The translations under genes were made by a program, and so were the position numbers. 64,000 bases of DNA from a virus. Taxonomy: Duplodnaviria; Caudoviricetes. The stretch lies in IMG/VR virus record IMGVR_UViG_3300046461_000177, positions 1,400-65,399 of that record; one strand, 5' to 3'. This document shows, piece after piece, positions 1,904 to 57,439 of this stretch (its first letter is position 1; each line of letters opens with the position of its first letter). The notes beneath the pieces were generated by a model. That model searched no databases, had not been told where the DNA came from, and saw only the letters and a list, made by a program, of their open reading frames with translations.

Positions 1904-1944
1904 GGGCAGGATATTCCGCAGCGGCCCTAGTCGGCCGATGCGGA
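1904..1944 (-). promoter_or_regulatory. oriT: oriT (MOBP/IncP-type nic site plus inverted repeat)
   Basis: Minus strand reads ATATCCTG^CCC (1914-1904), matching the YATCCTG^Y consensus; IR TCCGCA-G-CGGCC / GGCCG-A-TGCGGA at 1915-1944; directly upstream of mobC-relaxase. Confidence 0.8.
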
Positions 1945-2006
1945 GTTGACAGGGCGAGGATCGAGTGGGAATCTGACGCTGTAGTTGACACCGAGGGGAT
2001 AACCGC

Positions 2007-2375
2007 ATGACGAAGCCGAAGACCAAGGGACCGAAGCGCCACAAGCAGCCCGCCGTGCCCGGCGGCAGGCCCCATCGGGTGCGTGTGCAGCTCACGACGG
2101 CGCAACTCCAAGCGCTGCAACGACTCTCGGACGAGCTTTACATCGGCATCCCGGAGATCCTGATTTCCAGTGCCCTGGACGCTCCGAAGCAGGCCCCGAA
2201 GGCGATGGCCGCGGAGGTCGACGGCATCCGTCGGATCCTCACCGAGGAGTCAGAAAGCCTGCGCAGGATCGCCATGTTCGCGGATGAAAAAAGCTGGTAC
2301 CCGAACGGTTGGGCGAACGTCCACAACTCCATCGAGGAGCGCAACGCGAGGATCGCGAAGTACCTCGGATGCTGA
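2007..2375 (+). CDS. mobC: MobC-like relaxosome accessory protein (RHH)
   Basis: RVRVQLT beta strand plus helices; located between oriT and relaxase. Confidence 0.65.
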   Translation: MTKPKTKGPKRHKQPAVPGGRPHRVRVQLTTAQLQALQRLSDELYIGIPEILISSALDAPKQAPKAMAAEVDGIRRILTEESESLRRIAMFADEKSWYPNGWANVHNSIEERNARIAKYLGC

Positions 2376-2794
2376 CTCCCGAACTGCCGGAGCACTGCCC
2401 GTGCGGCGGCTGGCCCAGCGATCCCGGTGAGCCGATTCCGGAAATCCCCGGGCTCTACAACCATCGCGTGCTGACCCATCCGGTGGCATTCGTCAACGGC
2501 GAGTGGGTGGCGACCGCGGACCTGCCAAGGATCAAGACGACCGCAGAACGAGCGGCCGAGACCGACGCCGAGGAGAAGGGCGCCGAGCGGCTCACCAACG
2601 CCAGGAAAAGCTGGGAGGCGGCCAGAACCACGTCGACCAATGCAGCACTGAACCGGCTGATCGAGATGCACGAGCCACTGATGAATGGCCGGTACGACCT
2701 GTACTGCAATCAGTGCTGGGATGAGGGTGGGTACATGACGTCGTGGCCCTGTGAAAGCTGGCGCATGCTGCTCGTGGTCATGCTCAGGCCATGA
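2369..2794 (+). CDS. Phage-type hypothetical protein (H-x-P...CxxC...WPC)
   Basis: Overlaps mobC stop and relaxase start; C-terminal HEP...CNQCWD...SWPC. Confidence 0.65.
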   Translation: MLTPELPEHCPCGGWPSDPGEPIPEIPGLYNHRVLTHPVAFVNGEWVATADLPRIKTTAERAAETDAEEKGAERLTNARKSWEAARTTSTNAALNRLIEMHEPLMNGRYDLYCNQCWDEGGYMTSWPCESWRMLLVVMLRP

Positions 2795-5313
2795 GTCTGA
2801 TCGTGAAGATCGTGGGCCGCTCGGGTGACCCAGGCGGTCTGATCAACTACCTCGCGAACGACAAGAATCTGCACGAGAACCAGCGGATCGTGGCTGGCAC
2901 CGTGCGGTACCAGGGGCACCTGGACAAGGAACTCGCGCAGCAGGTGGCCGCCGATCTGCGGTTCTATCAGCAGACCACCGGCAAGGTGATGCCGAAGGGC
3001 CACGTCTACCACGTGACCCTGTCGGCGAGCCGGGAGAACGGGCCGATTCCCGACGCCCGGTGGGACGACATCGCGAACGATTTCATGGACGGCATGCGCT
3101 TCACCGGCCCGAACCTGAGTCCGGTGCGCTGGACCGCGGTGAACCATGGCGCCAACGCTTCCGGCGCCGATCACATCCATATCGCGATGAGCCTGGTGCG
3201 GCAGAACGGCCGACAGGTGAACCTCTACAACGACATGGTCCGGGCCTCCGGGGTGGCGACCAGACTGGAACAGAAGTACGGCCTCGGAGTGCTGCAGACC
3301 CGCCTCGCCCTCATCGGTGCTGGCAGTGTTCCGTACACCCACGGCGAGATCAAGCGGGCTGAGCAGGAAGGACGCCCGGAGGCTGATCGGGTGCGTCTGG
3401 AGCGCGACATCCGGGCGCTGGCCGGGCAGGCGCGCAGTGAGGTGGAGTTCATCAAGCTGGTCAAGGACGACGGCCTGCTGATCGCGCCCTTCCCTCGCGA
3501 GAAGGGCCTCGTCAAGGGTTACTCGGTGGCCCTGCCGACCTCTGCCGGCACCCGGCAGGACTGGCTGGCGGGTGGGAAGCTGGCGAAGGATCTGACCCTG
3601 CCACAGCTTCGCCGCCGCTGGCCGGGGACCCCGAATCAGCGGGTCGCAGCACAGCACGCTTGGCGCGGCAGCGAAGCCGGACAGGATCAGGAGCAGCAGG
3701 CGGACGGCGGCACGGAGGTTACCCCGGACGACCTGGCCGAGGCCCTGCAGCAGGCGACTCCGGCGTCGTTCGCGGACCTGTCTCACGACCTGGCGGCGAA
3801 CCTCGCGGCAGCCAGCCGAATGCTGGAGGAGGTGCCGGGCGAACTGGCGGCGGCCAGTCGGGACGCGGGCGCCTGGGCGCAACCGCACGTGCTGCCGGAG
3901 GGCGCTCCGCTGCTGACCCGAGCGGGTGCCCGCCTCTTCGTCCAGGGCCTTGATCCCAGCGGAGAACGCGGCCGGAGCATCATGTTCCGCCAGTTCGCCG
4001 ACACGATGTTGGAGCTGTACCGACTGCATCAGGTGCAACGCCTGAGAGTCGCAACGAGAAGGCAGGTGGGCAGGATGGACGACGCGAATCCGGCGGCGGA
4101 AGTGATGGACGATGGCACCACACTGGCGGCGACGGGTTCGATGCTCGCCGTCATGCAGACAGCACGGAATGAACGGACGGCGATCGAACACGACACTGCC
4201 GCGGACACCGGAGGAGATGGCGAGATGTTCGGCAAGACCAAGGGACAGGGCGAGGCGAAGAGTGGTGGCCTCGACCTGATCGATCGGGACTTCTTCCGCG
4301 ACGCCCGACGCATGGAGCAGGCGCATCGCGCGTCGGTACGGGAGCAGGCCAAGCTGATCGGTATCGGCCCGCCGGCAACCCCGGACCAGATCGAGAGACT
4401 GGAGAAGTTGTCGGAGCAGGTGGGCCTCCCGCTGGATCGGGAGACCCTGGCCGCGGTACGGCAGGACCGCGCGGCGGACATGATCCTGGACTTCGAGTCG
4501 GCCGCGAAGGACTACGGCCTGCCGCCGATCCAGACCGGGCAGTACGAGGCCGTTGTGTCCAAGGTTGTGGGGCCGTACGGCGTCAGCAATGGCGCCGAGG
4601 CCGACGCTTTCCTGGGCGGGCTGGAACGCCGGGCGCAGCTTCGCCAGGAGGCCGCGGACCTTGCCGCCTTCGACGCCGCCCAGGCCGCCGCCAAGAATGC
4701 CGAAGCGCCATGGATCGACCCGGACCACATGGTTGACACGCCGCCCGATGTCGCGGACATGCGGGCCCAACTGGACCACGTCATGGACTGCGGCCCGCTC
4801 CTGAGCGACGCCCAGGTCGTGGAACAGAACCGCAAGATGCACGCCGCCGGCATTCATCCCGTGCCGGTTGTCAATGGCACTGCGCAGGTGTCGCCACCCC
4901 TCCCGACGGAGGGGGCTGCGTACCAATACCGCGCGGCGCCAGCGCGCTCGGACGCGCCAATATATTCGGGGGATCCGCGCAACTGGGAGAACGCGATGGA
5001 CCCGATCAGCAAGCCACAGCGGTATCGGCTGCAGCAGGCCGGGTTCAGTGACGTGGAGATCGGCGAGCTGGCGGGCAAGGGCGAGGCATCGGTCGTGGTG
5101 GGCGCCTACCTGGGTCCTGATACACCGCCGGTGCCGGACCCAGCGCGCGCTCGCGCGGCGTACGACAAGGTGCAGGCCGAGGCCATTGGCGCAGTCTCAG
5201 GGATGGGTACCCCGACCCAGCCGCGGGTAGCGGATCTGCCGTCGCAGACTGCTACTCCGACCATCGCTGCGCCCCAGCAGGCGTCGCGGAAACCTCTGCG
5301 CCCGACGCAGTAA
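2791..5313 (+). CDS. MOBP family relaxase with long C-terminal extension
   Basis: N-terminal LINYL (catalytic Tyr), VYHVTLS, HG...DHIHIAMSLV HUH motif. Confidence 0.9.
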   Translation: MSLIVKIVGRSGDPGGLINYLANDKNLHENQRIVAGTVRYQGHLDKELAQQVAADLRFYQQTTGKVMPKGHVYHVTLSASRENGPIPDARWDDIANDFMDGMRFTGPNLSPVRWTAVNHGANASGADHIHIAMSLVRQNGRQVNLYNDMVRASGVATRLEQKYGLGVLQTRLALIGAGSVPYTHGEIKRAEQEGRPEADRVRLERDIRALAGQARSEVEFIKLVKDDGLLIAPFPREKGLVKGYSVALPTSAGTRQDWLAGGKLAKDLTLPQLRRRWPGTPNQRVAAQHAWRGSEAGQDQEQQADGGTEVTPDDLAEALQQATPASFADLSHDLAANLAAASRMLEEVPGELAAASRDAGAWAQPHVLPEGAPLLTRAGARLFVQGLDPSGERGRSIMFRQFADTMLELYRLHQVQRLRVATRRQVGRMDDANPAAEVMDDGTTLAATGSMLAVMQTARNERTAIEHDTAADTGGDGEMFGKTKGQGEAKSGGLDLIDRDFFRDARRMEQAHRASVREQAKLIGIGPPATPDQIERLEKLSEQVGLPLDRETLAAVRQDRAADMILDFESAAKDYGLPPIQTGQYEAVVSKVVGPYGVSNGAEADAFLGGLERRAQLRQEAADLAAFDAAQAAAKNAEAPWIDPDHMVDTPPDVADMRAQLDHVMDCGPLLSDAQVVEQNRKMHAAGIHPVPVVNGTAQVSPPLPTEGAAYQYRAAPARSDAPIYSGDPRNWENAMDPISKPQRYRLQQAGFSDVEIGELAGKGEASVVVGAYLGPDTPPVPDPARARAAYDKVQAEAIGAVSGMGTPTQPRVADLPSQTATPTIAAPQQASRKPLRPTQ

Positions 5314-5404: not shown

Positions 5405-6004
5405 TCAGCCGGCAAGCGGTGGGAAGTTCACATGCTGACCGGGTCGATCGGGGTGCTGGCTGCAACTGGCCAAGCCGCCACCCTCCGCCCACAACTTCTC
5501 CATCAGCGGGTAGGCGTAAACAGTCAGCCACACGGCCCGTTCGGTCGACGGAACCAGTGGGTCATCCGGCGGTCGGTGAGCCTCGTAGGCGCGCCACAGA
5601 GCTTGGATAACCTCAACCGCTTCGGGGTGCAAGGCCCAGTCCCCGCACCACCGGTAGCCCTGTCCCAACTCGTCCCGCGCGAAAATCCTGGACAGGTATG
5701 CGTGGAAGAACTCAGTGTGGTTGGGGTACTCCGTCGGCGGCCGGGTGGTGACGGTGATCAGGTCGTCCTCGGGGGCGAGGAGCCCGATCGCGGCGACCCG
5801 GTAGACGTAGGTGGTGCTCGGTCTGCAGTTCGGGTCGATGAACTTCCGACCGGAGGTAACGGCCGCGATGCGCTCCATCGGAGCCGGCGGGATGCACCGG
5901 TGGACGACGTAACTGGATGGGATGCCGGGGTCGGTCGCTTCCCGCGACCAGGCCAGCGAGACGGTCTCCCGGCCGCCGTCCGTCACGGTCAGTTTGAGCG
6001 TCAT
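5405..6004 (-). CDS. DUF4913-like conjugation-associated protein with N-terminal FN3-like domain
   Basis: RWCGDWALHPEAV...ALWRAYE...C motif downstream of T4CP; N-terminal VSLAW...STTYVYRVAA. Confidence 0.7.
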   Translation of the reverse strand: MTLKLTVTDGGRETVSLAWSREATDPGIPSSYVVHRCIPPAPMERIAAVTSGRKFIDPNCRPSTTYVYRVAAIGLLAPEDDLITVTTRPPTEYPNHTEFFHAYLSRIFARDELGQGYRWCGDWALHPEAVEVIQALWRAYEAHRPPDDPLVPSTERAVWLTVYAYPLMEKLWAEGGGLASCSQHPDRPGQHVNFPPLAG

Positions 6005-7773
6005 ACGGTCAGCGCCGGGCGGGGTCCGTACATCTCGATGGACCGCTTCACGAGCGCGTCCATCTCGGGATCAAGGAAGTACGGCTCCATCTTGGTGAGC
6101 ACCGGCCGGCCACCGCCGTAGTGGACGATCATCCGCCATTCCGGCAGCGCCGCGATGTCCGATGGGTTGAGAATCGGCACTTCGTGATACTGGGCATTGA
6201 GTGACCTGGAGGCTCGCCCGCCGCCGGTGGTGAAGATGCCGGATGGCGTGCTGTTGCCGGTCGAGTAGGTGCGACGCTCGTAGGGACCGACGATCTTGGA
6301 CAGCTTCTCCAGCAGTTCCATCTCATCGATGCCGCGGCCGTAGAGCCGGTGGGTGGATGCCCCGGAGAGTTTATCCATGCCGTCCTTGCCCCAGGCCGCG
6401 CGGCCTTGTGCCAGGGACTGGAAGATGGCCAGGCAGAGTAACCCCTGGCTGGCGAAGTGGGAGAACCAGTCGGGTAGTGGCTTGATCCTGGCGACGTTCG
6501 CGACCTCGTCCAGGGCGAGCACGCCGGTGGGGTCGATCCGGCCGCCGGGGCAGGTCTTGGCATAGCTACGGGCGGCCTCCGTGATGGCGACGGTGAGCGC
6601 CGCGACCAGCGGCCCGAGGCTGCCGGTGCCCTCCTCGGACAGGCTGATCACCGTGTCGCCCTGGGACCGGACGAACTGGTGCGGGTCGAATTGCGGGCGC
6701 ATGTCGGTGGGGCCGTCCTGCACGATCCAGGCCAACGCCTGGCGGTTGAACAGGAAGTTGATGACCCGCTTGGCGTTGGCGAAGACGCCCCGCTTGGTGT
6801 CCGGATTCAGGTGGAACCCGAAGTCGACGTTGGACGCGGACAGTGCCCAGCCGGCATCCCGCAGGATCCGTACAGGTACACCGCCCTGGTCGGGGTTATT
6901 GATCCAGTACACGACGTCGGTGATCGGCCGACGATCGATAGCGGCTGCCAGTAGGAGTCCAGAGAGCAGGTTGATCCCCTCGGGCTCGAAGAACCCATCG
7001 GTCTTGGCGTCCATGATCCGGGCGGCGTCGGCGAAGATGTTGGCCTGGGTGGTGGCCTTGGTGTCGGCGTCGGCGGCGCATTCGGCGCCGGGTCCGTAGA
7101 TGTAGGTCAACGGGTTCCAGTACCAGGTGGGTTCGACCTCGGCGACCTTCTGCGGATCGAAGCACCAGAACCGGCCCTTCTGCTCCCTGGCGTAGCGGAC
7201 CGCCACGTAAAGGTCAGGCTTGTTGGCTGTGGCGTACGCCCAGCCGGGCGCTTTCAGGACCCACTTGATCACCAGCGCCGAGGTCTTACCCGCACCGGGG
7301 TTCATGACTGCCATGACCGTCGAGCGCCAGTCGGCCCAGAGATCCTTGCCGGTGGCGACCGCCTTACCGAGCGGCAGGCCCACATCAACCCCGGTGGTGT
7401 ATTTCGCGCTGGCATTCTTGGCACGGACGGTTTTCAGGGTCAGTTCCTTGCCGTCGCCCATGAGCTTCGCTCGCGCGTCGATGTGATCCTGGGCTATGCG
7501 TCGTTGTCGCATGGTCATGCCGACGAGAACTACCTGAGCGGCGAATGCGAGCCCGAGCCCGATCGCCAGCGCTGTATGAACGATCCCCCACTCGTCCCAT
7601 GGCGTCGGCTGCAGCTTGGCCCATTTCGCGGGATTCGCGGGGAGCCATTCCGCTGTATTCAGCCAGTGTCCGAGGTGCAATACGCCATAGGTGACGAGGC
7701 CGATCAGGAGCCCCTCCACACCAAGTAGCGTCCAGGTGGGGCCATTTCCGGGCCGGCGCTGGTGAATGCTCAT
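6001..7773 (-). CDS. virD4: Type IV coupling protein (VirD4/TraD/TraG)
   Basis: Two N-terminal TMs, Walker A PGAGKTS, Walker B LALDEVAN, QSLAQ motif. Confidence 0.9.
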   Translation of the reverse strand: MSIHQRRPGNGPTWTLLGVEGLLIGLVTYGVLHLGHWLNTAEWLPANPAKWAKLQPTPWDEWGIVHTALAIGLGLAFAAQVVLVGMTMRQRRIAQDHIDARAKLMGDGKELTLKTVRAKNASAKYTTGVDVGLPLGKAVATGKDLWADWRSTVMAVMNPGAGKTSALVIKWVLKAPGWAYATANKPDLYVAVRYAREQKGRFWCFDPQKVAEVEPTWYWNPLTYIYGPGAECAADADTKATTQANIFADAARIMDAKTDGFFEPEGINLLSGLLLAAAIDRRPITDVVYWINNPDQGGVPVRILRDAGWALSASNVDFGFHLNPDTKRGVFANAKRVINFLFNRQALAWIVQDGPTDMRPQFDPHQFVRSQGDTVISLSEEGTGSLGPLVAALTVAITEAARSYAKTCPGGRIDPTGVLALDEVANVARIKPLPDWFSHFASQGLLCLAIFQSLAQGRAAWGKDGMDKLSGASTHRLYGRGIDEMELLEKLSKIVGPYERRTYSTGNSTPSGIFTTGGGRASRSLNAQYHEVPILNPSDIAALPEWRMIVHYGGGRPVLTKMEPYFLDPEMDALVKRSIEMYGPRPALTV

Positions 7774-7970
7774 TTCTCCTCCGAGGCTTTCAGTAGATCG
7801 GTGACGTCCGACTGCAGGATCCGAACTCGACCTCGGCCCAGCTTGTAGGACGGGATGAGGCCCTTCTTGCGCCAGCGTCTGAGCGTGCGCGTGGTGATCC
7901 GGAGTTGCTCCGCAGCTTCTGCCGTGGTCAGCAGCAGGCCGGTAGGCCCTACACCATGGGACAGGGACAT
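7770..7970 (-). CDS. Excisionase/BldC-like MerR-type HTH DNA-binding protein
   Basis: LLTTAEAAEQLRITTRTLRRW..G.IP...G..RI; RBS GAAGGA. Confidence 0.85.
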   Translation of the reverse strand: MSLSHGVGPTGLLLTTAEAAEQLRITTRTLRRWRKKGLIPSYKLGRGRVRILQSDVTDLLKASEEK

Positions 7971-8015
7971 GTCACTTCCTTCGAGTTGATGGTTGGGTAA
8001 TACCATCCCTTAGAG

Positions 8016-8051
8016 TGACCGCTCTTGTCCACCCTTGACCGGTGTTGACCG
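8016..8051. repeat. Four 10-bp-phased TG(A/T)CC direct repeats in divergent tra promoter region
   Basis: TGACC/TGTCC at 8016, 8026, 8036, 8046. Confidence 0.7.
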
Positions 8052-8112
8052 CCCTTCGCTCCGACTGCTAGTGTCCCTGGAGTATCAACAACCACTCCAC
8101 AGGAGGACCCGA

Positions 8113-8409
8113 ATGTCACTGCCCACACTCGTTGCGAAGGCCCAACTCGCCCTGGCGCCGCCCGATCCGGGCGCGGCCGACCTTCCGGCGAAGGTCAATG
8201 CCGCCGTCGACAAGATCGTCGGAATGTTAATCACCATCGGCGGCATCGTGGCGGTGATCGCCCTGATCGCCGCGTTCATCATGCTGATGATCGGTGAAGA
8301 CAACCGCGGCGGCTCGGGCGGCACCAAGATCATGAAGGTGCTGGCCGGTCTCGGCGGCGTCCTGGGCGCCGGTTCCCTCGTCGGGATCATCTGGACCGCC
8401 GCGGGATGA
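8113..8409 (+). CDS. Pilin-like membrane protein (TrbC/VirB2-like)
   Basis: Strong RBS AGGAGG; about 98 aa with two hydrophobic helices; first gene of tra operon. Confidence 0.7.
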   Translation: MSLPTLVAKAQLALAPPDPGAADLPAKVNAAVDKIVGMLITIGGIVAVIALIAAFIMLMIGEDNRGGSGGTKIMKVLAGLGGVLGAGSLVGIIWTAAG

Positions 8410-9137
8410 GCAAGCTCAGGACCGCGGTAGATGTCGCACCTGCGGCGCCACGACGTACGTGGCGCCGCAGGGTGGTGGACGGCTGGCACGGCCCGGTCGG
8501 TTATGGCGTCACCGCTGTGTTTTTTGTGGTGGTCATCGCGGGCCTGATCTGGATCGTGTTCTTTCCGCCGGGCAAGCCACTGGTGACAGGAACCGGGTCG
8601 ACCCCGGCGCCGGCCACTGCACCTGCCGAGTCCACGCTCACCAGTGATGCCATGCCGTCGCCCGCCGTGGATTGCCCCCCACAGGATCCGATCGAGTTCC
8701 TGCCGGAGCAGGTACTCAGCGAGTCCTACATCACCACCTGGTACCCGGTGGGCGCCATGGCTGCACCCAGCTCACCGGCGGCCGGCCCGACCCAGGCGCG
8801 GCGGTGCTTTGCTCGGACGCCGGAGGGCGCGCTCTATGCGGCGGTCACCAGACTTGCTGAGGAGGCCGCCAATACGGGCCTCGTGCAGCAGGCAGCGGCC
8901 CAGGGTGTCACTGACATCCGATTCAGCGGCTACCGGTGGCAGTCATACACCCCCGACAAGGCGATCGTCGTGGTGCGCTTGGCCGCCTCGAACGGGGTCG
9001 ACACCCACCAAGCCGGGCGCGTGCTGGACGTGACATGGGCCGACAACGACTGGCAAGTAGTCCCGGATGACACCGCAGCCGCCGCGTCCGCCGCGGCCGA
9101 CCCGAAACGCATATACACACCCTGGGGAGGGTCCTGA
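8406..9137 (+). CDS. Bitopic conjugal transfer protein (VirB8-like position)
   Basis: Single TM, Pro/Thr linker, GP...CFARTPEGAL.AA motif seen in actinobacterial tra clusters. Confidence 0.6.
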   Translation: MSKLRTAVDVAPAAPRRTWRRRVVDGWHGPVGYGVTAVFFVVVIAGLIWIVFFPPGKPLVTGTGSTPAPATAPAESTLTSDAMPSPAVDCPPQDPIEFLPEQVLSESYITTWYPVGAMAAPSSPAAGPTQARRCFARTPEGALYAAVTRLAEEAANTGLVQQAAAQGVTDIRFSGYRWQSYTPDKAIVVVRLAASNGVDTHQAGRVLDVTWADNDWQVVPDDTAAAASAAADPKRIYTPWGGS

Positions 9138-10207
9138 TGCTTGCCACCGTGACGCACTTCGTCACTCCGTTCATGGCTGCGGTCGCACGACTGGACCCGG
9201 CTACCGACGCCTGCCTGCAGGCCCGCAACGACCGACCGTTCCTCTGGGCAGTTGTTGACGACATCATCAACGGCGGCGGCCCGCAGAGCTGCTCACCCGC
9301 GCCGGCAACCGTTGTGGGGCAGGCTGTCTGGGGTAGCTCGTTTCAGCCGTTCATCGATGACATGAGGAACGGTGTCGGCGACACCACCAAGACCATGGCG
9401 ACGTTCTGGGTGTCCATGCCTGATCCCGACGTCGGGAACGCGGACACGGGTGTCGCTTCTGATGCTGTCTCGTTCCTGCAGTCCAGCTTGGCGCCGTTCG
9501 TCGGGGCACTCCTGGTGGCCGCCGTGATCATCGGCTGCGTCCGGGCCATGTACGAGAACCGTGGCGGGGAGTTCAGGGACATCATCGCCCTGCTGGTGCG
9601 GTACTTCCTGATCGCCGGCCTGCTCGTGCCGGTGATTGCCTCAACGCTCGTCATCATCCATGAGTCAGCAGCCTGGATCCTGGATAGATCAACGCTTGGA
9701 ACGAAGTTTGCAGAGAACCTCGCCGCACTGTTTTCCAACGGTCAGGGGGTCACCTCGGCGATTATCCTGTTCATCCTGCTGCTTATCGGCGCCCTGGTCG
9801 CCGTTGGTCAAGCCGGCGTGATGATCTTCCGGGCCGGCATCATCATCCTGCGGACCGGGACCATTCTGCTGTCCGTGGCGGTCAGCAACACTGAGACCGG
9901 CAAGGAATCCCTACGCACGGCCGCCGGATCACTGGTCGCCTGGACGATCTACCCGTTCGTTGCGGCCATCGTCTACGCGACCGGGTTTCGATTGATGGGC
10001 ACCGACACGAGCCTTGCGGGAAATGGCATCCTGCAGTGCATTTGGGGCATCGCCGTCATGCTCATGGCGATCTTCGCGCTGCCCGCAACGCTGCGTCTGG
10101 TCTCGCCGGCTGTTGCACCCGCCGCTGGCGGCAAGGGTGTCGGCTCGGCTGTGGCCGGTGCCGCAACCACGTATGTCGTCATGCAGTCGACCGGCCGCGC
10201 CGCCTGA
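9137..10207 (+). CDS. Polytopic T4SS channel protein (VirB6/TrbL-like)
   Basis: Multiple TM helices, ATFWV motif, operon position. Confidence 0.75.
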   Translation: MLATVTHFVTPFMAAVARLDPATDACLQARNDRPFLWAVVDDIINGGGPQSCSPAPATVVGQAVWGSSFQPFIDDMRNGVGDTTKTMATFWVSMPDPDVGNADTGVASDAVSFLQSSLAPFVGALLVAAVIIGCVRAMYENRGGEFRDIIALLVRYFLIAGLLVPVIASTLVIIHESAAWILDRSTLGTKFAENLAALFSNGQGVTSAIILFILLLIGALVAVGQAGVMIFRAGIIILRTGTILLSVAVSNTETGKESLRTAAGSLVAWTIYPFVAAIVYATGFRLMGTDTSLAGNGILQCIWGIAVMLMAIFALPATLRLVSPAVAPAAGGKGVGSAVAGAATTYVVMQSTGRAA

Positions 10208-10245
10208 TCCTCACCTGATTTCCAACCCGAAAGGCACCTTTCGTC

Positions 10246-11805
10246 ATGACCGCTGTCCTGAATCAGCCCCTACCCGACACCGAACTGCCTTACAACTCGC
10301 CTCGGCGGCCGAAAACGCGAGGGTTCGGGCCGTTGGGGATGCTTGGCTCGGCCGTTGTTGCCGTGGGACTGATCTTCGGTGTCATCTTCTCCGTGTTCAT
10401 CAGTCGCCCAGTTGGGCTGGGGATCTTCGCGCTCACGGGCCTCTTCTTCCTCCTGGCGCTGTGGAAAGACCACCATCACCATGGCCCGTTGGAGGAGGCC
10501 GTCGAGCGGTGGGGCTGGTTCCGGCAGCGACTCTCGGGCGGGCATCTCTACATCCCGGGACACATCACGCAGATCGGTGACTGGCCGGTGCCCGGAGTGG
10601 GTGCGAAGTCGACACTCACTCAGGCCGAAGATGTTTTCGGGCACAGCTATGCGTTGATCACCTACCCGCAGGTCGGCCATCACGTACTGAACATGCAGGC
10701 CAATCCAGACGGCGCCGCCCTGGCGGATGCCATCTTTTCCGACCAGCAGGACAGTAAGTTCTCCGAGTGGCAGGCGTCGCTGGGAAACGAGGCTGACCTG
10801 GAGCAGTTGGCGATCACGATGGAGATCGCTCCCGACGCCTATCCCGCCGTCAAGCGGGAGATCGACAAGAACCTGGACAAGGGCGCGCCGGCACTGTCCC
10901 AGCAAATGCTGCAGGACTGCGTCAAGATGTACGCCGGCCAGGGCGGTGCCACGAGTAAGTCGTACATCACCATGACCTTCTCGACGCCGTCCGATGCCGA
11001 CTCGGCCGAGGTCAAGGCCGACGGTGGCGCGGCGGCGATGCGGGAGTCGCTGGCGACCCGCATCCCCGATCTGCTTCGGCCCATTCCTGCGACGGGCGCG
11101 GGACCGGTGACCTTGATGACCGGCGACGACGTGGTCAGGGTGGTGCGCTGCGCATACAACCCAGGCGACCGCGCTCTCTATCAGGAGTTGCACGCCAACG
11201 GGGAGAGTACCCCGGTCATCCTCTGGTCGTCGGCCGGGCCGGCGGGTTCCGAGGAATCCAAGGACTCCTACGAGCACGGCGACGGTCGCTCGATCACTTG
11301 GGGCACTACAGGGTTCATCGGCGCCCAGGTGGCCAGCCGCGTCATGAAACCGCTGGTCAAGGATCCGCCGATGTCGGTGCACACGCTGCGGATCACCTGG
11401 CTCTACAAGCCGATCAGTCCGGCGAAGTCTGGGTTCATTGCCGAGGCTGATCACCGAGCCGCCAAGCAGCGCAAGCGATCTGGCAGTAAGGATCCGTCCG
11501 AGCGAGTGGTCGCCGACGCCGATGCCGCCGCACGCACCCGCAAGGCGGAGGCACAGGGCAAGGGGTTGCTGAACTTCGCTTGCCTGATCACGGCGACCGT
11601 CCTAGAGCAGGATGACGAAGCCGGTACCGCCAAGGCCGTGAAACGGGCCAAGTCCGGCATCGAGCATCAGACCCCAGCCGCGAAGCTACACACCCGCGTC
11701 ATGCGCCGCGCCCAGGCGTATGCATTTGCCCAGGCTTGCGGCTACCTGGGCCTGTCTTCCAGTGCCCATCTTTTCGTCCCCACATCTGTCCGAAAGGCAG
11801 GCTGA
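10246..11805 (+). CDS. PrgI/VirB3-like (SCO6880-type) conjugation protein
   Basis: N-terminal two TMs plus large soluble domain upstream of VirB4 ATPase. Confidence 0.7.
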   Translation: MTAVLNQPLPDTELPYNSPRRPKTRGFGPLGMLGSAVVAVGLIFGVIFSVFISRPVGLGIFALTGLFFLLALWKDHHHHGPLEEAVERWGWFRQRLSGGHLYIPGHITQIGDWPVPGVGAKSTLTQAEDVFGHSYALITYPQVGHHVLNMQANPDGAALADAIFSDQQDSKFSEWQASLGNEADLEQLAITMEIAPDAYPAVKREIDKNLDKGAPALSQQMLQDCVKMYAGQGGATSKSYITMTFSTPSDADSAEVKADGGAAAMRESLATRIPDLLRPIPATGAGPVTLMTGDDVVRVVRCAYNPGDRALYQELHANGESTPVILWSSAGPAGSEESKDSYEHGDGRSITWGTTGFIGAQVASRVMKPLVKDPPMSVHTLRITWLYKPISPAKSGFIAEADHRAAKQRKRSGSKDPSERVVADADAAARTRKAEAQGKGLLNFACLITATVLEQDDEAGTAKAVKRAKSGIEHQTPAAKLHTRVMRRAQAYAFAQACGYLGLSSSAHLFVPTSVRKAG

Positions 11806-11806
11806 A

Positions 11807-12085
11807 ATGTCGCTCGTCAGCACCCCGTATTACGACCTCCACTGCCAGGGCAAGCTGGCCAACCTGCGCCAGCCCGACTGCCCGGCCATCTCCGAGGGCG
11901 GGTTCGACCAGGAGGCGGTCGTCAAGGCCGCGTTGGAGCGTGGCTGGACCGAGACCGGGAAGGGTCACAAGTGCCCTGGCTGCTCGTATGTCGCGGCCGA
12001 AGCGACTGTTGCACCGATGCGCAAGCCACGGCAGAAGTCCAACCCGATCATCGAGGCCGACCAGTTCGGCGGGCAGGACCAGTGA
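11807..12085 (+). CDS. Small Zn-ribbon phage-type protein
   Basis: C...C...A..RGW...HKCPGC pattern; stop overlaps VirB4 GTG. Confidence 0.6.
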   Translation: MSLVSTPYYDLHCQGKLANLRQPDCPAISEGGFDQEAVVKAALERGWTETGKGHKCPGCSYVAAEATVAPMRKPRQKSNPIIEADQFGGQDQ

Positions 12086-14681: not shown

Positions 14682-14843
14682 TCCCCGATCCACAGTGGTC
14701 CGCGTGTCGTCGGGTTCGGGCCGAAGATCCCGGCGGCCTGTAGTTCTGCAACAGCCCGGCTCAGCTCATCTTCCGTCGGCGGATGGGTTGGGCCGGGTTT
14801 TTGCCCTGTCGCCTTGTTGACACTCGATGGTATCTTCTCGGGC

Positions 14844-15188
14844 ATGTGGCTCCTCGGTCCCTTCCTGATCATCTACGCGATGTTCAAGTTCTGGCGACTC
14901 ACGGTAACGCTGTTCCTTGTTTCCGTCACCTGGATCCTCATCGCCCAGCACCCCATTATTGGGTACTCGCTGCTGGGTCTGGAGGTCGTTAGTCTGATCT
15001 TCGCCCTTCATGTCCGCGAGCAGGACGGCAACGCCCGCGAGGCGACCAACCTGCAGCGGCGCGTCGAGGCGGACCTCGACCGGCGCGACCGGCGCCTCGA
15101 AGTCGATCGCGCCGGCCGAGCCCAGATGGAACGCCAAGCCGAGTTGGTCGCGGCGGCATTGATCCGAGAGGCACGGAGGCCCAGATGA
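14844..15188 (+). CDS. Membrane protein with coiled-coil tail
   Basis: Hydrophobic N-half; preceded by TGG-TATCTT 7 nt before ATG (leaderless-type promoter). Confidence 0.55.
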   Translation: MWLLGPFLIIYAMFKFWRLTVTLFLVSVTWILIAQHPIIGYSLLGLEVVSLIFALHVREQDGNAREATNLQRRVEADLDRRDRRLEVDRAGRAQMERQAELVAAALIREARRPR

Positions 15189-15397: not shown

Positions 15398-15411
15398 CCT
15401 ACCATGACTCC

Positions 15412-15801: not shown

Positions 15802-15944
15802 CCGGGGCATTCCTGCGAGCCCGTCGAGTCATGAACGAGCCACCGGTATGGATGCGGGCCGTGCGGTTCGCCCCGCGTCAGAGCAGGGCAAGTCGATGGG
15901 TCGTACGTCGGCGGCATGGTTGGTGACAATACCGCCGCGGTCAA

Positions 15945-16925: not shown

Positions 16926-16987
16926 TCGCTTCCTCCCGGTTGACGTTCCGTGATCCCTTTGCACACCGTAGGTGGCAGACTCGTCGC

Positions 16988-41722: not shown

Positions 41723-41734
41723 GAGGCGAGTCCC

Positions 41735-48342: not shown

Positions 48343-49451
48343 TGCTCAAAGCCTCAGCCCTGATGCAGGAGGCGGCTCGGTTCTCCCGAACCCTGTCGTC
48401 CCGCGTGGACATCTACTCCGGCACGAAGATCCTGTACCAGAACGTGCCGGTTACCACCGGCCAGCTCGTTGCGGACCGTGGCAGTTCTACCCGCCTCAAC
48501 TGCAACGTCACCCTGGCTCTGCAGCGGAATGAGGGTCAGGACATCAACGTCCAGAAGTGCCGATTCAAGGCGTACCGGGGGATCGAGTCCATCGGGGTCG
48601 CCGAGCGCTTCCAGATGGGCGAGTTCCGGGTGGATGAGTTGACTCGGGATGAGACCGGCGTCATCCAGTTGACCGGTGCCGGCCTGGAGTCCTACGTCAT
48701 CGACGCCCGGTTCATCCGGCCGCGGACACCACCCAAGGGCACGTCCACCATCGCCTTCATCGTCACACTGATTCAGGAGGCGCTGCCGTCGGTTCCGATC
48801 CGGATCCTGGCAACGACGGACCGGCTCATCACCGCGACGGCGCCGTGGGATTCGGAGCGCTGGGATGCAATCACAGCCCTGGCGGATTCGGTCAATGCCG
48901 AGGTCTTCTGCAACGCCAATGGTGAGTTCGTCATCGCCGACGCGCCGGACCTGGTGAACCAGGCACCGGTCTACCTGATCAACGAGGGTGACGAGGGTGT
49001 GCTGATCCACCGCAAGACCAAGGACACCCGTGACCAGGTCTACAACGCCGTGTCGTCGTCCGGGTCATCGTCGGACCCGAACGTGCTGCCGGTGTGGGGC
49101 TGGGCCTACGACAATGATCCGACGTCGCCGACGTACTACTTCGCCGACCCGCTGCAGGGCGGGTTCGGTCAGGTGCCGCGCTTCTACGAGTCCCAGTTTT
49201 TCAACACCGACGCCCAGGCTCAGCGCGTCGCGAACAACCTGCTCGCGCAGTCATTGGCGGCGAACTCCACGATCACGTTCAACACGGTCCCACTGGGCTT
49301 CCTGGAGGTCGGTGACACGGTGACGGTGGAACTGATCGATGCCACCTACGAGAATCACCTGATCCAGAAGTCCACGGTCACGCTGGAGATCGACGGTGAC
49401 ATGGCCGTCGAAACCCTGTCTTCCAAGGTGATTGCACGGGCGGTGCTCTGA
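48342..49451 (+). CDS. Minor tail / baseplate hub (DUF5047-like)
   Basis: RWDAI..LA, YNAV, FG.VPRFY.S, LEVGD. Confidence 0.8.
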   Translation: MLKASALMQEAARFSRTLSSRVDIYSGTKILYQNVPVTTGQLVADRGSSTRLNCNVTLALQRNEGQDINVQKCRFKAYRGIESIGVAERFQMGEFRVDELTRDETGVIQLTGAGLESYVIDARFIRPRTPPKGTSTIAFIVTLIQEALPSVPIRILATTDRLITATAPWDSERWDAITALADSVNAEVFCNANGEFVIADAPDLVNQAPVYLINEGDEGVLIHRKTKDTRDQVYNAVSSSGSSSDPNVLPVWGWAYDNDPTSPTYYFADPLQGGFGQVPRFYESQFFNTDAQAQRVANNLLAQSLAANSTITFNTVPLGFLEVGDTVTVELIDATYENHLIQKSTVTLEIDGDMAVETLSSKVIARAVL

Positions 49452-50125
49452 TGGATCTGGCAGCGGCACTGGTGGTCGACCCCGGCGTGAAGTGGATCAT
49501 CGGGAGAGTTACCGCCATCACCGGCGAGACATTGACGATGGTTTATCGCGGCGGCCTCGTTACCAACGTCGGCGTCATGGACCAGTACACCCCGAAGGTC
49601 GGCGACGTCGTCCACGTCCTGTCCTCCGACACCAACGGCATGATCGCACTGGGCTCGAACACCCAGACCACGACACCGCCAGTGACGCCGGCACCTCGCG
49701 CGCCGGTGACTGTGGCCTCGACGTCAGTTGCCACGTATACCCTCTCGACCGGAACCTGGCAGACCGGGTCGCTGATCGAGTCACCTGATCAGGTCGGCTG
49801 CTGGTTCTATCCGGGCATGGCCACCACGCCCGGCGCGGGTATCCAGCCGTTGGCGTCGCTGTCGATCCGGGTCACGGCGCAGACTGCGACCCCACTGGAG
49901 TTCGTCCTGCACGCCTCCGCCGACCCCACGGGCGTCCTCGTGACCACCGGCTCGTACCGCATCGCCGCGCCGCCATTACTGACACCCACCGACGTGCGAC
50001 TCCCCCTGGAATGGGCGCCGCTGCTGATCCGTGGCCAGGCGCTCGGGGTCGGCGTCGGCGGGGGAGACTACACCGCCATCTTTACCGGCAGTTCCGGTTT
50101 GTTGACCTTTACACCGCTGACGTAG
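49451..50125 (+). CDS. Minor tail protein
   Basis: YTPKVGDVV.VL OB-like motif. Confidence 0.7.
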   Translation: MDLAAALVVDPGVKWIIGRVTAITGETLTMVYRGGLVTNVGVMDQYTPKVGDVVHVLSSDTNGMIALGSNTQTTTPPVTPAPRAPVTVASTSVATYTLSTGTWQTGSLIESPDQVGCWFYPGMATTPGAGIQPLASLSIRVTAQTATPLEFVLHASADPTGVLVTTGSYRIAAPPLLTPTDVRLPLEWAPLLIRGQALGVGVGGGDYTAIFTGSSGLLTFTPLT

Positions 50126-50157
50126 TCCATGCTTGACCGAGAACAAGGGAGATCGTA

Positions 50158-50937
50158 GTGAAGCTACTCGATGCGGCGACGGTGAACCCGCAGGACCGCA
50201 TGGCCAACCACTGGCAGATGGGCTACAAAGGCGTCTCCCGGGAGTGCGCCGTCTCGGTGGAGCTGCAGGTCCCCTGCCCACCGGACTCGTCCACCGCGGC
50301 CTGGGATGCGACGGTGACGCCACTGATCGGCACCGTCACCTCCACCAAGACGCAGTACGACGTCACGCCCGTGCCGATCCGGTACTACCTCCGACAGTCG
50401 GTCTCCTGTGAGCAGGACGACGACAAGGATTGGTTCACCGAGGCGGTCATCGCTAAGACGGACTACGCCGTGAGTCGGGCACTGGTCATGGAGACCCCCA
50501 CCGGGGCGGACACCTGGGTCGGCGCGGCGGGGGTGCAGTCCGTATCACTGGCTGGCAATACGGCGGCGAACTGGAGGACCGCGGTCGCCGCGGCGCGGAA
50601 GCTCTGGGTGCACTCGGTGGTCTCCCGCAACGAACACCCGATCCTGCACGTGCCGCCGCTGCTGGCTGGCGATCTCCTCGGCGCTGGCCTGCTGCAGATC
50701 AACGGACCGGAGGAGGTCGACTCGATCTGGGGCGACAGGGTCGTCATCTCCGACGGCTATGACGACCCGGCCACGCCGCATGTGTTTTTCACGGGCGAGA
50801 TCATCGTCCGGCTGTCCGAATTGGACGAGGAGGGTGGCGTCGGGTACGACCACCGGATCAACGAGTACAGCCTAGAGGCACACCGTTGGGCCGCGATCGA
50901 CCTGGCACCGTGCGCGATCGTGCGAGTTGGTGCGTGA
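50158..50937 (+). CDS. Probable capsid pentamer / second capsid protein
   Basis: LLDAAT...W..G......C, ILHVPP, WGD.VV...GY, TG.I.V pattern recalled from cluster-B pentamer proteins. Confidence 0.55.
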   Translation: MKLLDAATVNPQDRMANHWQMGYKGVSRECAVSVELQVPCPPDSSTAAWDATVTPLIGTVTSTKTQYDVTPVPIRYYLRQSVSCEQDDDKDWFTEAVIAKTDYAVSRALVMETPTGADTWVGAAGVQSVSLAGNTAANWRTAVAAARKLWVHSVVSRNEHPILHVPPLLAGDLLGAGLLQINGPEEVDSIWGDRVVISDGYDDPATPHVFFTGEIIVRLSELDEEGGVGYDHRINEYSLEAHRWAAIDLAPCAIVRVGA

Positions 50938-55040: not shown

Positions 55041-55235
55041 GTGACGAACATCCTGCCGCCGGACGTGTCGGCGGCCATTCGGGACAAGCTCGTCCCCGGC
55101 TATGAGACCGACCCCAGCGCCGTCGGCGTCAATCGGGAGGTCGCCCCCGAGGCTGTCGATGACAGGTCGTGGACCGAGGTTCACAACCTCACCGAGGACG
55201 ACGTCGCTGAGCTGACCGGGGAGCAGGTCTCGTGA
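55041..55235 (+). CDS. Small acidic protein
   Basis: RBS GGAG, GTGA coupling to lysin. Confidence 0.5.
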   Translation: MTNILPPDVSAAIRDKLVPGYETDPSAVGVNREVAPEAVDDRSWTEVHNLTEDDVAELTGEQVS

Positions 55236-55831
55236 TCTTGCCCAGCGGGGCCTCGACAACGGACTACAGCCGCCTTGCCAACTCCAAGGGATGGGGTTCG
55301 GGATGGCCCGCCTGCGGTGGCATGGCGGGCAATATCGTCCAGGTCAAGCTGTCTCGATCCGGCACGAGCATCGCCGGTGGCGTGCACCGCGGCATCGCGG
55401 AATTGTTCACGCTGATCGGCAATGAGATCGAGCGACGCGGCTATATGTTCCATCCCGGCTGGTGTTGGGGCGCGGAGTGCAGAGCCATCTCTGGATCGAA
55501 CACTCCGAGCAACCATTCCTGGGGCCTCGCGGTCGACATCAACGCGCCGAACAATCCGTACACGAGCAGTGGTGTCCATGACATTCCCGACTGGGCCTAT
55601 AACCTGTTCCGCTCTTACGGATTCGGCTGCGGCGCAGACTATTCCGGCAAGAAAGACTGGATGCATGTCGAGGCGCTCGGGACGCCGTCCGACATGGCCA
55701 TCATGACCAGCCTGGCCCGCCAGAACCTTGCGGGCGGCGGCCCAGTCGTCGTGCCGCCGGACCCCAGCAAGCCGCCCGTTGTCGTCCCCTCTGGGCACCC
55801 GTTCCTCAACCAACTCTTGCACTGGAGCTGA
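55232..55831 (+). CDS. Endolysin, M15 family peptidase
   Basis: R.I.GS..PSNHSWGLAVDIN, DWMHVE. Confidence 0.85.
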   Translation: MILPSGASTTDYSRLANSKGWGSGWPACGGMAGNIVQVKLSRSGTSIAGGVHRGIAELFTLIGNEIERRGYMFHPGWCWGAECRAISGSNTPSNHSWGLAVDINAPNNPYTSSGVHDIPDWAYNLFRSYGFGCGADYSGKKDWMHVEALGTPSDMAIMTSLARQNLAGGGPVVVPPDPSKPPVVVPSGHPFLNQLLHWS

Positions 55832-55837
55832 TCGACA

Positions 55838-56359
55838 ATGGCAGACAACGTCGTTATCTACTACGTCGGATGGCACGGCACCATCTATGAATGCAACCTC
55901 CTCAGTGGCACCTACTGGGGGGTCCCCAGCATGGACCGGCTCGGAGCGCGACGGCGGGCTCTGGACTGGGCAGGCATCCCCTGGAAGGACTGGCCGCACG
56001 GTGAGCCAGCGAACATGGACGAGTTCGGTGTTGAGCTGCTCATCGGCAACTCCCGTGGCGTCGGGAACGGTGTCAACCGAATCCTGTTCGGCGGCGGCAG
56101 AGCAGACGGCGGGGATCGGCTCGGGGACCTCTGGGGCCAGGGCGGGGACATCTCCGGCAAGCTGGACCGCATCCTCAGTGCCCTACAAGTGCCCGTTCCG
56201 CCGCCGCCCGCACCACCGACGTACACCGTCAAGGCCGGCGACTCTCTCGGTGCCATTGCGAAAGCCACAGGGCACACCGTCCAGGAGCTGCAGACCTGGA
56301 ACAACATCGCTGACCCGAACAACATCTCCATCGGTCAGGTCTTGAAACTCACCCCTTGA
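55838..56359 (+). CDS. LysM-domain cell-wall-binding protein
   Basis: YTVKAGDSLGAIA......EL..WNNI.DPN.I.IGQVL. Confidence 0.85.
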   Translation: MADNVVIYYVGWHGTIYECNLLSGTYWGVPSMDRLGARRRALDWAGIPWKDWPHGEPANMDEFGVELLIGNSRGVGNGVNRILFGGGRADGGDRLGDLWGQGGDISGKLDRILSALQVPVPPPPAPPTYTVKAGDSLGAIAKATGHTVQELQTWNNIADPNNISIGQVLKLTP

Positions 56360-56892
56360 CGACCCCGGTAGCCGACAAGCGTGATGACTACCGGGGTGAG
56401 ATCGATCGGGCCGTCGAACAGTTCGGCGCCGACCGCCAGTGGTCGGCCGCGCAACTCGCGAAGGCGAAACGGATTTGCTATCGCGTAGTATTCACGGAGA
56501 GTGACTTTCGTAACCTTGCTAACAAGTCAGTACCCGAGTCGATCAAGGTCATCCCGAACGACGGCTACGGCAAGGATCTGGACAGCACAGGGCTCTACCA
56601 ACAGCGTGAATCCCAAGGCTGGGGAACGGTTATCGGGTCCATGGATCCGTTCACCGCGACCGTCCGATTCCTGACCGAGATGTTGAAATACGCGCCGAAC
56701 TGGCTAACGGACAACGAGTCCAGTAGCGCGCAGCGGGTCCAGCGGTCACAGTTCGATGCCGTGCGCATCGATCCGGCCACCGGACTGCCGTACCCCTTTG
56801 GCGCGAACTACCAGGCCCGCAGTGCCCAGGTCGACGCCCTCGAAGCCGATCGCCTCTTCTTTCAACACGGCGCGAAAGTAGGCGGTGCGTGA
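56356..56892 (+). CDS. Lysozyme/transglycosylase-like lysin domain
   Basis: TES..RNLAN..VPES, DS.GLYQQR..GWG, MDP..A...F, QRVQRS. Confidence 0.75.
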   Translation: MTTPVADKRDDYRGEIDRAVEQFGADRQWSAAQLAKAKRICYRVVFTESDFRNLANKSVPESIKVIPNDGYGKDLDSTGLYQQRESQGWGTVIGSMDPFTATVRFLTEMLKYAPNWLTDNESSSAQRVQRSQFDAVRIDPATGLPYPFGANYQARSAQVDALEADRLFFQHGAKVGGA

Positions 56893-56938
56893 ACGCCCGA
56901 TCACCGGTACGGTTTACCTCGACGGCCGGAGGGTACTG

Positions 56939-57439
56939 ATGGCAACAGGCAATATCTCGATCACGGTCGATGGACTCGGCCAGGTGGCCGAGACGGTCAA
57001 CACGGTGGCGGCAATGCTCGCCACCCTCACAGTGAAGGTGGACAAGCTCGTGTCATCCGCAGAACAGATCAGCGCGAACCTCGACAACATCTCGGGGGAC
57101 ATCGACGGCCTCCAGGGCAGCGTCCAGACGCTGCAGCAGGCCAACACCGCCCTCCAGGCCCAGGTCGACGCCCTGCCCGCCGAGGTGGCCACCCAGGTCT
57201 CCGCGGCCCTGGATCAGCAGAACGCGGCCCTGCAGGCGGTCGTACAGAAGTCCCAGGCCCTCGCGGACCGCATCCCGGATTCCACGACTCCTGACCAGCC
57301 GGCGCCGCCGACCGACACCCCCCCGACCGATCAGCCGCCCACGGATACCCCCCCGGTGGACCAGCCCCCGACGGACAACCCGCCCGCAGACAACCCACCG
57401 GCGGACAATCCCAACCCCGCTGGTGACGTCAACGTCTAA
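56939..57439 (+). CDS. Coiled-coil protein with Pro/Asp pentapeptide repeats
   Basis: Heptad region then (T/A/V)D(T/Q/N)PP repeats. Confidence 0.65.
   Translation: MATGNISITVDGLGQVAETVNTVAAMLATLTVKVDKLVSSAEQISANLDNISGDIDGLQGSVQTLQQANTALQAQVDALPAEVATQVSAALDQQNAALQAVVQKSQALADRIPDSTTPDQPAPPTDTPPTDQPPTDTPPVDQPPTDNPPADNPPADNPNPAGDVNV

Follow-up and report, generated by a model that had tools for sequence, protein, structure and literature searches.

A plasmid-type conjugation module adjoins the packaging genes of a siphovirus-like phage genome from soil and rhizosphere

The DNA analyzed here, called the window throughout, is a stretch of 64,000 nucleotides that corresponds to bases 1400-65399 of one linear, 65,399-bp virus record of IMG/VR (IMGVR_UViG_3300046461_000177). 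Positions are those of the window unless marked as genome coordinates, which equal the window coordinate plus 1399. A preliminary description had proposed that a type IV secretion system (T4SS), together with a relaxase and an origin of transfer (oriT), is joined in this DNA to a siphovirus morphogenesis set. Matches to Pfam, NCBIfam and PHROG families and matches of protein fold confirmed this junction of the two gene sets. The conjugation block is of the actinobacterial plasmid type; it occupies 1.9-14.7 kb and is followed by the gene of the large terminase subunit (TerL) and by the other virion genes.

Upstream of the MobC-relaxase operon, an intergenic segment on the minus strand (1904-1944) contains an inverted repeat (1915-1926 and 1933-1944, 11 of 12 positions matching) followed by ATATCCTGC; this hairpin and its motif are a candidate oriT. 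The operon lies on the plus strand. Its gene at 2007-2375 codes for a putative relaxosome accessory protein of 122 residues, which had been named mobC: it gave no Pfam, NCBIfam or PHROG match and is MobC-like by its 31% identity over 91 residues (pairwise E 3e-10) to the annotated MobC of the Paenarthrobacter plasmid pYJND-1. The next gene (2369-2794) codes for a small protein whose C-terminal part contains a CxxCWD...WPCE motif; a right-arm gene at 59619-59840 on the minus strand has a paralogous one (40% identity over 35 residues, pairwise E 1e-5).

The gene at 2791-5313 codes for an 840-residue protein of the MobA/VirD2 relaxase superfamily, MOBP-like. The Pfam Relaxase model matched neither this protein nor any of the six frames of the contig, and the NCBIfam matches, TraI_MobP (6.9e-6) and MobB (4.8e-6), were both below cut-off. 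The earlier assignment as a MOBP relaxase was upheld through the family: a phmmer search of the full library returned 1,344 relatives at E <= 0.001, PF03432 was matched by 65 of the 66 aligned family members (best E 3.5e-20), and the catalytic tyrosine (Y20) and the histidine triad (H119, H128, H130) were invariant in the alignment of 66 relatives. Over 491 residues the protein is 29% identical to the MOBP-typed relaxase of pYJND-1. Next to the relaxase operon, a gene for a secreted protein or lipoprotein homologous to staphylococcal nuclease (genome 1165-2040, plus strand) begins 235 nt before the window, which holds its 3' part (1-641; Pfam SNase 2.1e-10). It seems to be part of the transfer module; a homologue (42%) adjoins the relaxase gene in a 107-kb relative (locus L093).

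The type IV coupling protein (T4CP) and its usual actinobacterial partner, a DUF4913 protein, are coded on the minus strand (6001-7773 and 5405-6004, respectively; DUF4913 Pfam match 2e-17), and the same pairing occurs in pYJND-1. The T4CP belongs to the VirD4/TraG family, with scores well over the Pfam thresholds for TraG-D_C (6e-25; 88 bits, cut-off 22) and T4SS-DNA_transf (1.7e-17; 63.9 bits, cut-off 20.1), and has two predicted N-terminal transmembrane (TM) helices. When compared with GenBank phages it gave only two matches, of 27% coverage, on unannotated faecal contigs.

The mating-pair formation (MPF) operon is transcribed from the plus strand. It includes genes for a TrbC/VirB2-like pilin (8113-8409; Pfam TrbC/VirB2 5.9e-11) with hydrophobic segments, for a bitopic protein with one TM helix (8406-9137), for a polytopic protein with six predicted TM helices (9137-10207), and for a 519-residue SCO6880-family protein (10246-11805; NCBIfam NF042935 2.4e-83) with two N-terminal TM helices. 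The SCO6880-family gene was always found upstream of the ATPase gene, the order also seen in pYJND-1. For the VirB6-like and the VirB3/VirB8-like parts the evidence is predicted topology (six TM helices in the polytopic protein, one in the bitopic protein and two in the SCO6880-family protein), SCO6880 being the sole match to a family model. VirB6- and VirB3-like genes had been proposed; the first stands by topology only, as the 9137-10207 protein has no family match in Pfam or NCBIfam. The small open reading frame (ORF) at 11807-12085 (+) was ruled out as VirB3-like because it lacks a TM helix; it codes for a Cys-rich, Zn-ribbon-like protein. The SCO6880-family protein, with its two TM helices, is the better VirB3-like candidate. 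The start regions of the pilin gene (8097-8120) and of the major capsid protein gene (35409-35432) share the 14-nt GGAGGACCCGAATG, which suggests that the same strong translation signal may serve both.

The VirB4-like ATPase gene (12178-13566, +) codes for a protein with Walker A (GLNGLGKST) and Walker B (ILQDE) motifs. Its sequence evidence was weak: there was no Pfam match, the CD1110 family was matched at 1.1e-5, a profile search of the PDB gave the VirB4 structure 4AG5 at 0.0014, and phmmer searches of PDB sequences with the ATPase and with the relaxase returned nothing useful. An AlphaFold2 model built from 30 homologues (mean pLDDT 78.9) gave, as top Foldseek match, the Thermoanaerobacter VirB4 4AG5 (E 1.8e-12, TM-score 0.75 on the target); HerA, TrwB and TrwK ranked below it. 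The modelled fold thus supports the VirB4-like label given to this gene. Matches to the ATPase family were found in 419 PLSDB plasmid records (Rhodococcus 91, Streptomyces 60, Arthrobacter 50) and in none of the records of the GenBank phage collection; the family is a standard component of actinobacterial plasmids.

The last gene of the block (13563-14681, +) codes for a lipoprotein cell-wall hydrolase with the lipobox LTGC, an NlpC/P60 domain (9.1e-10; 38.9 bits, cut-off 23) and a weak lysozyme-like domain (SLT_3, 0.0088). It was the only one of ten scanned T4SS-block proteins to be matched by PHROGs, and homologues occur in two related loci, L010 (65%) and L093 (53%). The T4CP, pilin and wall hydrolase of the preliminary description were all recovered as Pfam matches.

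The hydrolase stop codon is at 14681 and the TerL ORF begins at 16820, with a likely start at 16988, which leaves a gap of 2.1-2.3 kb, close to the 2.3 kb first estimated. The gap contains three plus-strand genes, for a TM protein (14814-15188), a variable small ORF (15185-15397) and a conserved acidic protein that is a small-terminase candidate by position only (15412-15801). None of the three has a family match, and homologues lie upstream of TerL in the loci L002, L010, L012 and L093. Two minus-strand genes follow within 15945-16647, for a DUF6527/phrog_3362 protein (Pfam DUF6527 1.2e-11; phrog_3362 2.8e-32) and a protein with two TM helices; a gene of a phage family therefore sits inside the junction. 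No integrase (PF00589 or PF00239) was matched in six frames of the contig and no direct repeats bracketing the T4SS block were found in the window. At the junction itself no integrase, transposase or att-like repeat was found, as first described, the transposase search not being exhaustive.

Two positions in the junction differ among assemblies. In a Logan contig from run X4, 225 bp at 15169-15395 (genome 16568-16794), which hold the ORF 15185-15397, are replaced by 19 other letters, so this is a variable junction locus. The X2 and X4 contigs both stop at genome 17904 and resume at 18059 (window 16505-16660), a gap that record 27 of X8 spans; this suggests that a 155-bp spot just upstream of TerL is polymorphic or hard to assemble.

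On the phage side, the genes described next, from TerL to the lysis enzymes, lie on the plus strand. TerL (16820-18493; Terminase_6N 1.8e-14, Terminase_6C 1e-4, phrog_2; exact recorded protein 501 residues) is followed by a MuF-like head morphogenesis protein (18487-19206; phrog_3517 9.6e-20), the portal (20472-22130; phrog_776 6.2e-96), an 850-residue head-associated protein of MuF/portal-fusion-like families (22771-25323; phrog_859 3.7e-62, phrog_18402 4.6e-48) and the major capsid protein (MCP; 35425-37194; phrog_777 3.5e-74). The MCP matched 762 GenBank phage records, with identities that did not exceed about 43%; each of these phages is an actinophage or is unclassified. The tail module (37230-50937; phrog_792 1.4e-21, phrog_783 1.8e-21, phrog_305 2.6e-45, phrog_1887 1.5e-59) includes a major tail (tube) protein, a head-tail adaptor (39168-39980), a tape measure protein of 1,462 residues (41735-46123) and tail proteins at 46120-48342 and 48183-49451. 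No tail sheath family was matched among the head and tail proteins scanned. TerL, portal and an HK97-type MCP, with a tail of tube, tape measure and distal proteins, identify a member of the Caudoviricetes with a siphovirus-type tail. Lysis enzymes are coded at 55232-56892: an M15 peptidase (Peptidase_M15_4 4.8e-12), an endolysin-type binding domain (phrog_380 6e-10) and a lysozyme-like domain (phrog_2810 1.6e-15).

Several lines of evidence were used to examine whether the two modules belong together. A diverged metagenome contig, L010 (21,002 bp, of which 13.8 kb were compared), is collinear with window 6.0-21.0 kb from T4CP to portal. Identities in the T4SS part were 62% for T4CP, 44% for the 8406-9137 protein, 56% for the six-TM protein, 48% for SCO6880, 76% for the Cys-rich protein, which also has a 56% homologue in L002, and 62% for the ATPase. 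They were 55-56% for the three junction genes, 80% for TerL, 76% for MuF and 56% for the portal. The pilin gave no tblastn match in L010. Logan contigs from three other studies bridge the T4SS genes, the junction and the TerL region: record 27 of X8 covers genome 15698-18428, from the hydrolase into TerL, record 7 of X2 covers 10114-17904 and record 20 of X4 covers 7129-16568. Together with L010, these contigs settled the contiguity of the junction. Among the sequencing runs listed as carrying window 10001-20000, 15 of 20 soil or rhizosphere runs held at least half of its words, and none of those listed was an RNA run.

Relatives of the ATPase and of TerL seem to occur together on five further contigs, a linkage inferred from the same size and source of both matches and not seen directly. 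These are contigs of 102,261 bp (JGI; ATPase and TerL both about 100%), 69,882 bp (ENA; ATPase 78%, TerL within a cluster of at least 90%), 53,799 bp (Logan; 60% and 81%), 58,363 bp (Logan; 59% and 85%) and 106,247 bp (JGI; 51% and 75%). Across the five, ATPase identity drops together with TerL identity.

In IMG/VR the T4CP pattern and a narrow ATPase pattern found no other contig, and a broader ATPase profile found three records, of 107,206, 94,637 and 87,200 bp. No tyrosine recombinase (PF00589) was matched in any of the three. The 107,206-bp phage, G004, is 62% identical to the window in TerL, 54% in the portal, 67% in the MCP and 39% in the ATPase, and has the hydrolase (53%), a gene like that at 15412-15801, TerL and MuF in a row. 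Its other T4SS genes, the relaxase and the nuclease adjoin this row in the opposite orientation, and its T4SS block lies between a stretch of other DNA about 14 kb long and the genes of TerL, portal and MCP. G004 differs from the window in the orientation of the MPF operon and in having an ATPase of a separate clade, and the window record is smaller (65.4 kb); on this comparison of sequences, the window element appears to represent a distinct lineage. L010 and G004 are thus the relatives with the same linkage that had been called for.

In the ATPase tree, the window group (P0001-P0015) was split from plasmid and cellular sequences with 100% SH-aLRT, and all six TerL-linked rows, L010 included, fell inside it. 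The ATPases of the three IMG/VR relatives fell elsewhere, among plasmid and cellular sequences, and the label "phage-linked" needs at least five changes on the tree. Since phage-linked ATPases occupy several positions, T4SS modules were probably exchanged several times; the trees were quick, with long branches and midpoint rooting, and are read as evidence of several module exchanges and not as a dated history.

As a control, T4SS-block genes were searched for at other terminase loci. In species genomes, none of the 80 loci that surround distant relatives of TerL had such a gene, and they occurred at only two of 89 first loci, L010 (seven genes) and L002 (two genes). In L002 (521-1762), a gene with a lysozyme-like domain and a small Cys-rich gene stand in reversed order with respect to the window, with no ATPase between them; this may be either the remnant of a lost T4SS or a rearranged T4SS that continues past the contig end. 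Several close TerL relatives (from among P0126, P0145, P0146, P0158, P0188 and P0230) are 680-860 residues long with Hint/intein Pfam domains, and the window TerL carries no such insert. At locus L013 the TerL match is broken by about 780 bp.

The window showed no seam between the modules. Its G+C content is about 65%, without a step in composition near 14-17 kb, and codon usage correlates between the modules with r of 0.95-0.98. The phrog_3362 gene inside the junction and the right-arm paralogue of the relaxase-operon motif protein also argue for the absence of a seam. Megablast searches gave no match, either to plasmids with window 1-25000 or to phages with 15001-40000. These comparisons indicate that the conjugation and phage genes form one element, and not an assembly chimera or an ICE (integrative and conjugative element) beside a prophage, because L010 is collinear, contigs of other studies bridge the junction, soil runs hold it and relatives of the ATPase and TerL are linked.

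The transfer-gene ORFs are all intact both in the window and in L010. In the mobC-like, relaxase, DUF4913, T4CP and pilin genes, 18 of 21 variants were synonymous, the 21 being a subset of the best-supported 40 of 381 read differences. This excess of synonymous changes points to purifying selection on the transfer genes.

Other features of the phage genome were noted. A 2H phosphoesterase-like gene (22127-22774; 2_5_RNA_ligase2 2.3e-5, below cut-off) lies between the genes of the portal and of the 850-residue head protein and is kept in L002, L003 and L012. Amid the head genes, upstream of the capsid gene, 26896-29745 codes for two proteins, one pectate-lyase-like (Pect-lyase_RHGA_epim 2.1e-11; PHROGs of the tail fibre/spike kind) and one with a PKD domain. 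A 1,074-residue ORF at 31780-35004, located after the head genes and before the capsid gene, matched no family of Pfam or PHROG. The tape measure gene contains, at 44012-45481, two diverged in-frame repeat families, one of six 50-nt copies starting TGGGA..TTCTGGAA and one of three 48-nt copies. The right arm (57833-64000), on the minus strand, codes for DnaB-N-like and RusA-like resolvase proteins, a protein with a strong phrog_15826 match, QueE, QueD and QueC, and the 3' part of a methylase. A perfect 23-bp direct repeat (61202-61224 and 63696-63718) brackets the phrog_15826/QueE/QueD/QueC cassette and could mark a mobile or recombining cassette. No tRNAs were found in the window.

The window probably represents most of the genome of an uncultured, siphovirus-like phage of soil and rhizosphere Actinomycetota, in which a complete conjugation module of the actinobacterial plasmid type has been fixed and kept by selection directly upstream of the packaging genes. 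In a cell carrying the element, the MobC-like protein and the relaxase would nick the candidate oriT. The T4CP, with the DUF4913 protein, would pass the relaxase-bound single strand to a channel built from the SCO6880-family protein, the VirB4-like ATPase, the six-TM protein and the pilin-like protein, and the lipoprotein hydrolase would open the wall. By the alternative route, TerL would package the same genome through the portal into long-tailed capsids, to be released by the lysins. Gene content, unity of the element, conserved linkage and purifying selection are the observations from which we infer that the element may spread both as particles and by cell-to-cell transfer. More tentatively, a whole lineage of tailed phages of soil actinobacteria might use conjugation as a second infection route, with each phage's relaxase guiding its genome through the T4SS that it encodes into adjacent cells, possibly even during productive infection without classical lysogeny and with receptor specificity bypassed, while T4SS modules are swapped repeatedly with the pool of plasmids and ICEs.

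Several observations weigh against this interpretation. Either route of spread is known here from genes alone, so that the preliminary claim of one element moving both by virion and by conjugation stands as to the single element, and the two kinds of movement stay inferred. The record is incomplete: CheckV gives it 88% completeness, with about 12% or more of the genome unseen, the DNA methylase gene is truncated by its right end (the Pfam N6_N4_Mtase match, 2e-18, spans positions 159-219 of a 221-position profile), and a Logan contig from another study extends 1,509 bases past its left end. It is therefore a large fragment and not a closed replicon, and the suggestion of one circular replicon was not sustained, as no terminal direct or inverted repeats were found on the record. 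Since relatives of the capsid protein come from phages of 100-190 kb, the true genome may be well above the 74 kb implied by CheckV. Only about 3.3 kb separate the T4SS block from the left contig end, and so phage DNA on both its sides is seen only in the relative G004. The oriT was only partly substantiated: the inverted repeat and ATATCCTGC are present, and the 7-mer by itself lacks specificity, as it occurs 33 times in the window where about 15 occurrences are expected; no conserved nic-like site was found upstream of the relaxases of the distant relatives L093-L095. None of the proteins could be confidently assigned as small terminase, protease or scaffold, the 850-residue protein giving one "protease" PHROG match. 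The linkage in relatives is also uneven: in L012 (TerL 58%) the 10 kb upstream of TerL show no T4SS gene, L002 (TerL 77%) has only its two T4SS remnants in the 3.8 kb available there, and the co-occurrence on five contigs and the count of synonymous variants carry the limits given above.

Maintenance genes are a further point. Conjugation requires a living donor, and for this reason their absence matters. ParB_N and CbiA/ParA had no match in six frames of the contig, no Rep or other plasmid replication family was found among the proteins scanned, with about 12% of the genome missing, and no lysogeny gene was found in the contig. These negatives, together with the lack of an integrase match, leave a stable donor state without support.

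The same lack of evidence for a long-lived donor favours a different use of the T4SS, namely that it was co-opted for protein secretion, DNA release or uptake, competitor exclusion or the mobilization of other DNA, the phage spreading as particles only. Exaptation of T4SSs for other roles is known (as stated in the available parts of PMC3548315 and PMC12857230), and the scattering of phage-linked ATPases over the tree would fit modules that were swapped rather than co-adapted. We consider such a role unlikely, however, since the DNA-specific parts are all kept, including the relaxase with its catalytic tyrosine and histidine triad, the MobC-like protein, the T4CP and the oriT-like site, and vary mostly synonymously. 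Incompleteness of the contig, in turn, could conceal a conjugative plasmid or ICE with a resident prophage, perhaps defective or domesticated, or a tandem of phage and ICE, with the virion genes outside the functional unit. The near-identical element that seems to lie on the 102-kb contig leaves room for this arrangement, and there are precedents in the 612 phage-ICE tandems from seven phyla given in the accessible text of PMC13651849 and in the fusion-formed conjugative phage-plasmid of Escherichia coli outlined in 10.1101/2025.03.14.643293. It is nevertheless hard to reconcile with the lack of integrase in the contig and in three relatives and of att-like repeats, with a junction kept from 100% down to 62% TerL identity, and with the position of the G004 block, which has the genes of TerL, portal and MCP on one flank and other DNA, about 14 kb of it, on the opposite flank. 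The gene sets for virion, lysis and DNA modification also look intact, no close TerL relative was found when the single sequence was compared with 185,579 species genomes (with a TerL profile, no relative found was more than 41% identical), and IMG/VR places the record among viruses; a plasmid or ICE with a prophage seems to us quite improbable. The metagenomic origin and the lack of terminal repeats would also allow a chimeric assembly of a plasmid or ICE fragment with a phage fragment, an explanation that the collinear L010, the bridging contigs from other studies, the same adjacency in G004 and the absence of a compositional break make very remote.

Horizontal gene transfer is treated as having two separate vehicles, phages and conjugative elements, which differ in host range, cost to the donor and limits on cargo. 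If the reading of a phage genome with its own conjugation module is correct, a phage lineage with its own relaxase and T4SS would break this division, the virus would gain a receptor-independent route into new hosts, and virus/plasmid classifiers and estimates of host range should treat such contigs differently. Many soil and rhizosphere samples contain the element in near-identical form, so it should be possible to obtain material for tests.

The literature searched yielded no paper on a tailed phage with a relaxase and a VirB4-type T4SS, although supplementary tables (S4 of PMC7969092 and Table 3 of 10.64898/2025.12.20.690322) may list comparable elements. According to the accessible part of a 2025 review, no conjugative phage-plasmid or prophage was known, and the preprint 10.64898/2025.12.20.690322, in its accessible part, mentions "conjugative phage-plasmids".

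The closest gene content is that of actinobacterial conjugative plasmids such as pYJND-1 (NZ_CP053550.1), which share with the window SCO6880, the VirB4-like ATP/GTP-binding ATPase, a TraM-recognition T4CP, DUF4913, a MOBP relaxase and MobC, in partly the same order. Identities to the plasmid counterparts are about 41% for the ATPase, 29% for the relaxase and 31% for MobC. Unlike in plasmids of this type, the window module adjoins TerL in a tailed-phage genome and its T4CP-DUF4913 pair is on the other strand. Actinobacteria also have ICEs of the T4SS type, as described in the text available of Ghinet et al. 2011 (PMC3218068); the window differs from actinobacterial plasmids and ICEs alike in that no plasmid replication gene, partition gene or integrase was found.

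With phage-plasmids such as P1, N15 and SSU5 the element shares the hybrid of phage and plasmid-type functions, according to the accessible parts of PMC7969092 and PMC12282955. What defines phage-plasmids there is that they replicate and partition as plasmids during lysogeny (Pfeifer et al. 2021, PMC7969092), whereas in the window such genes were not found and the plasmid-type part is a conjugation system. Filing the element as a phage-plasmid was rejected, as no replication or partition gene was found.

A physical link between phage genes and conjugation genes, which could then travel together, is likewise a feature of phage-ICE tandems (Huang et al. 2026, PMC13651849). In the text available the tandems are attributed to site-specific accretion, with integrases kept, and the authors say that they are not hybrid elements; in the window, by contrast, neither an integrase nor an att repeat was found, and diverged relatives keep the junction. 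The E. coli element p1002-1 (10.1101/2025.03.14.643293) also combines a conjugation system with phage-plasmid genes in one replicon, and is described, in the part of the preprint that is accessible, as two known replicons of closely related isolates that have fused. The window lineage, on the other hand, is diverged and its linkage is old (TerL 62-100%; ATPase 39% in G004 and 51-100% in the other linked contigs).

For the "conjugative prophage" Phi1207.3 of Streptococcus pyogenes, the accessible text of PMC4260502 reports conjugation-like transfer, while the window element is known from genes alone. The words relaxase, type IV and coupling protein are absent from that paper, which therefore names no such genes, and the window differs in having a full set of relaxase, T4CP and VirB4. 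Set beside these systems, the preliminary reading is supported in part: this is one hybrid element, whose dual mobility its gene content would allow.

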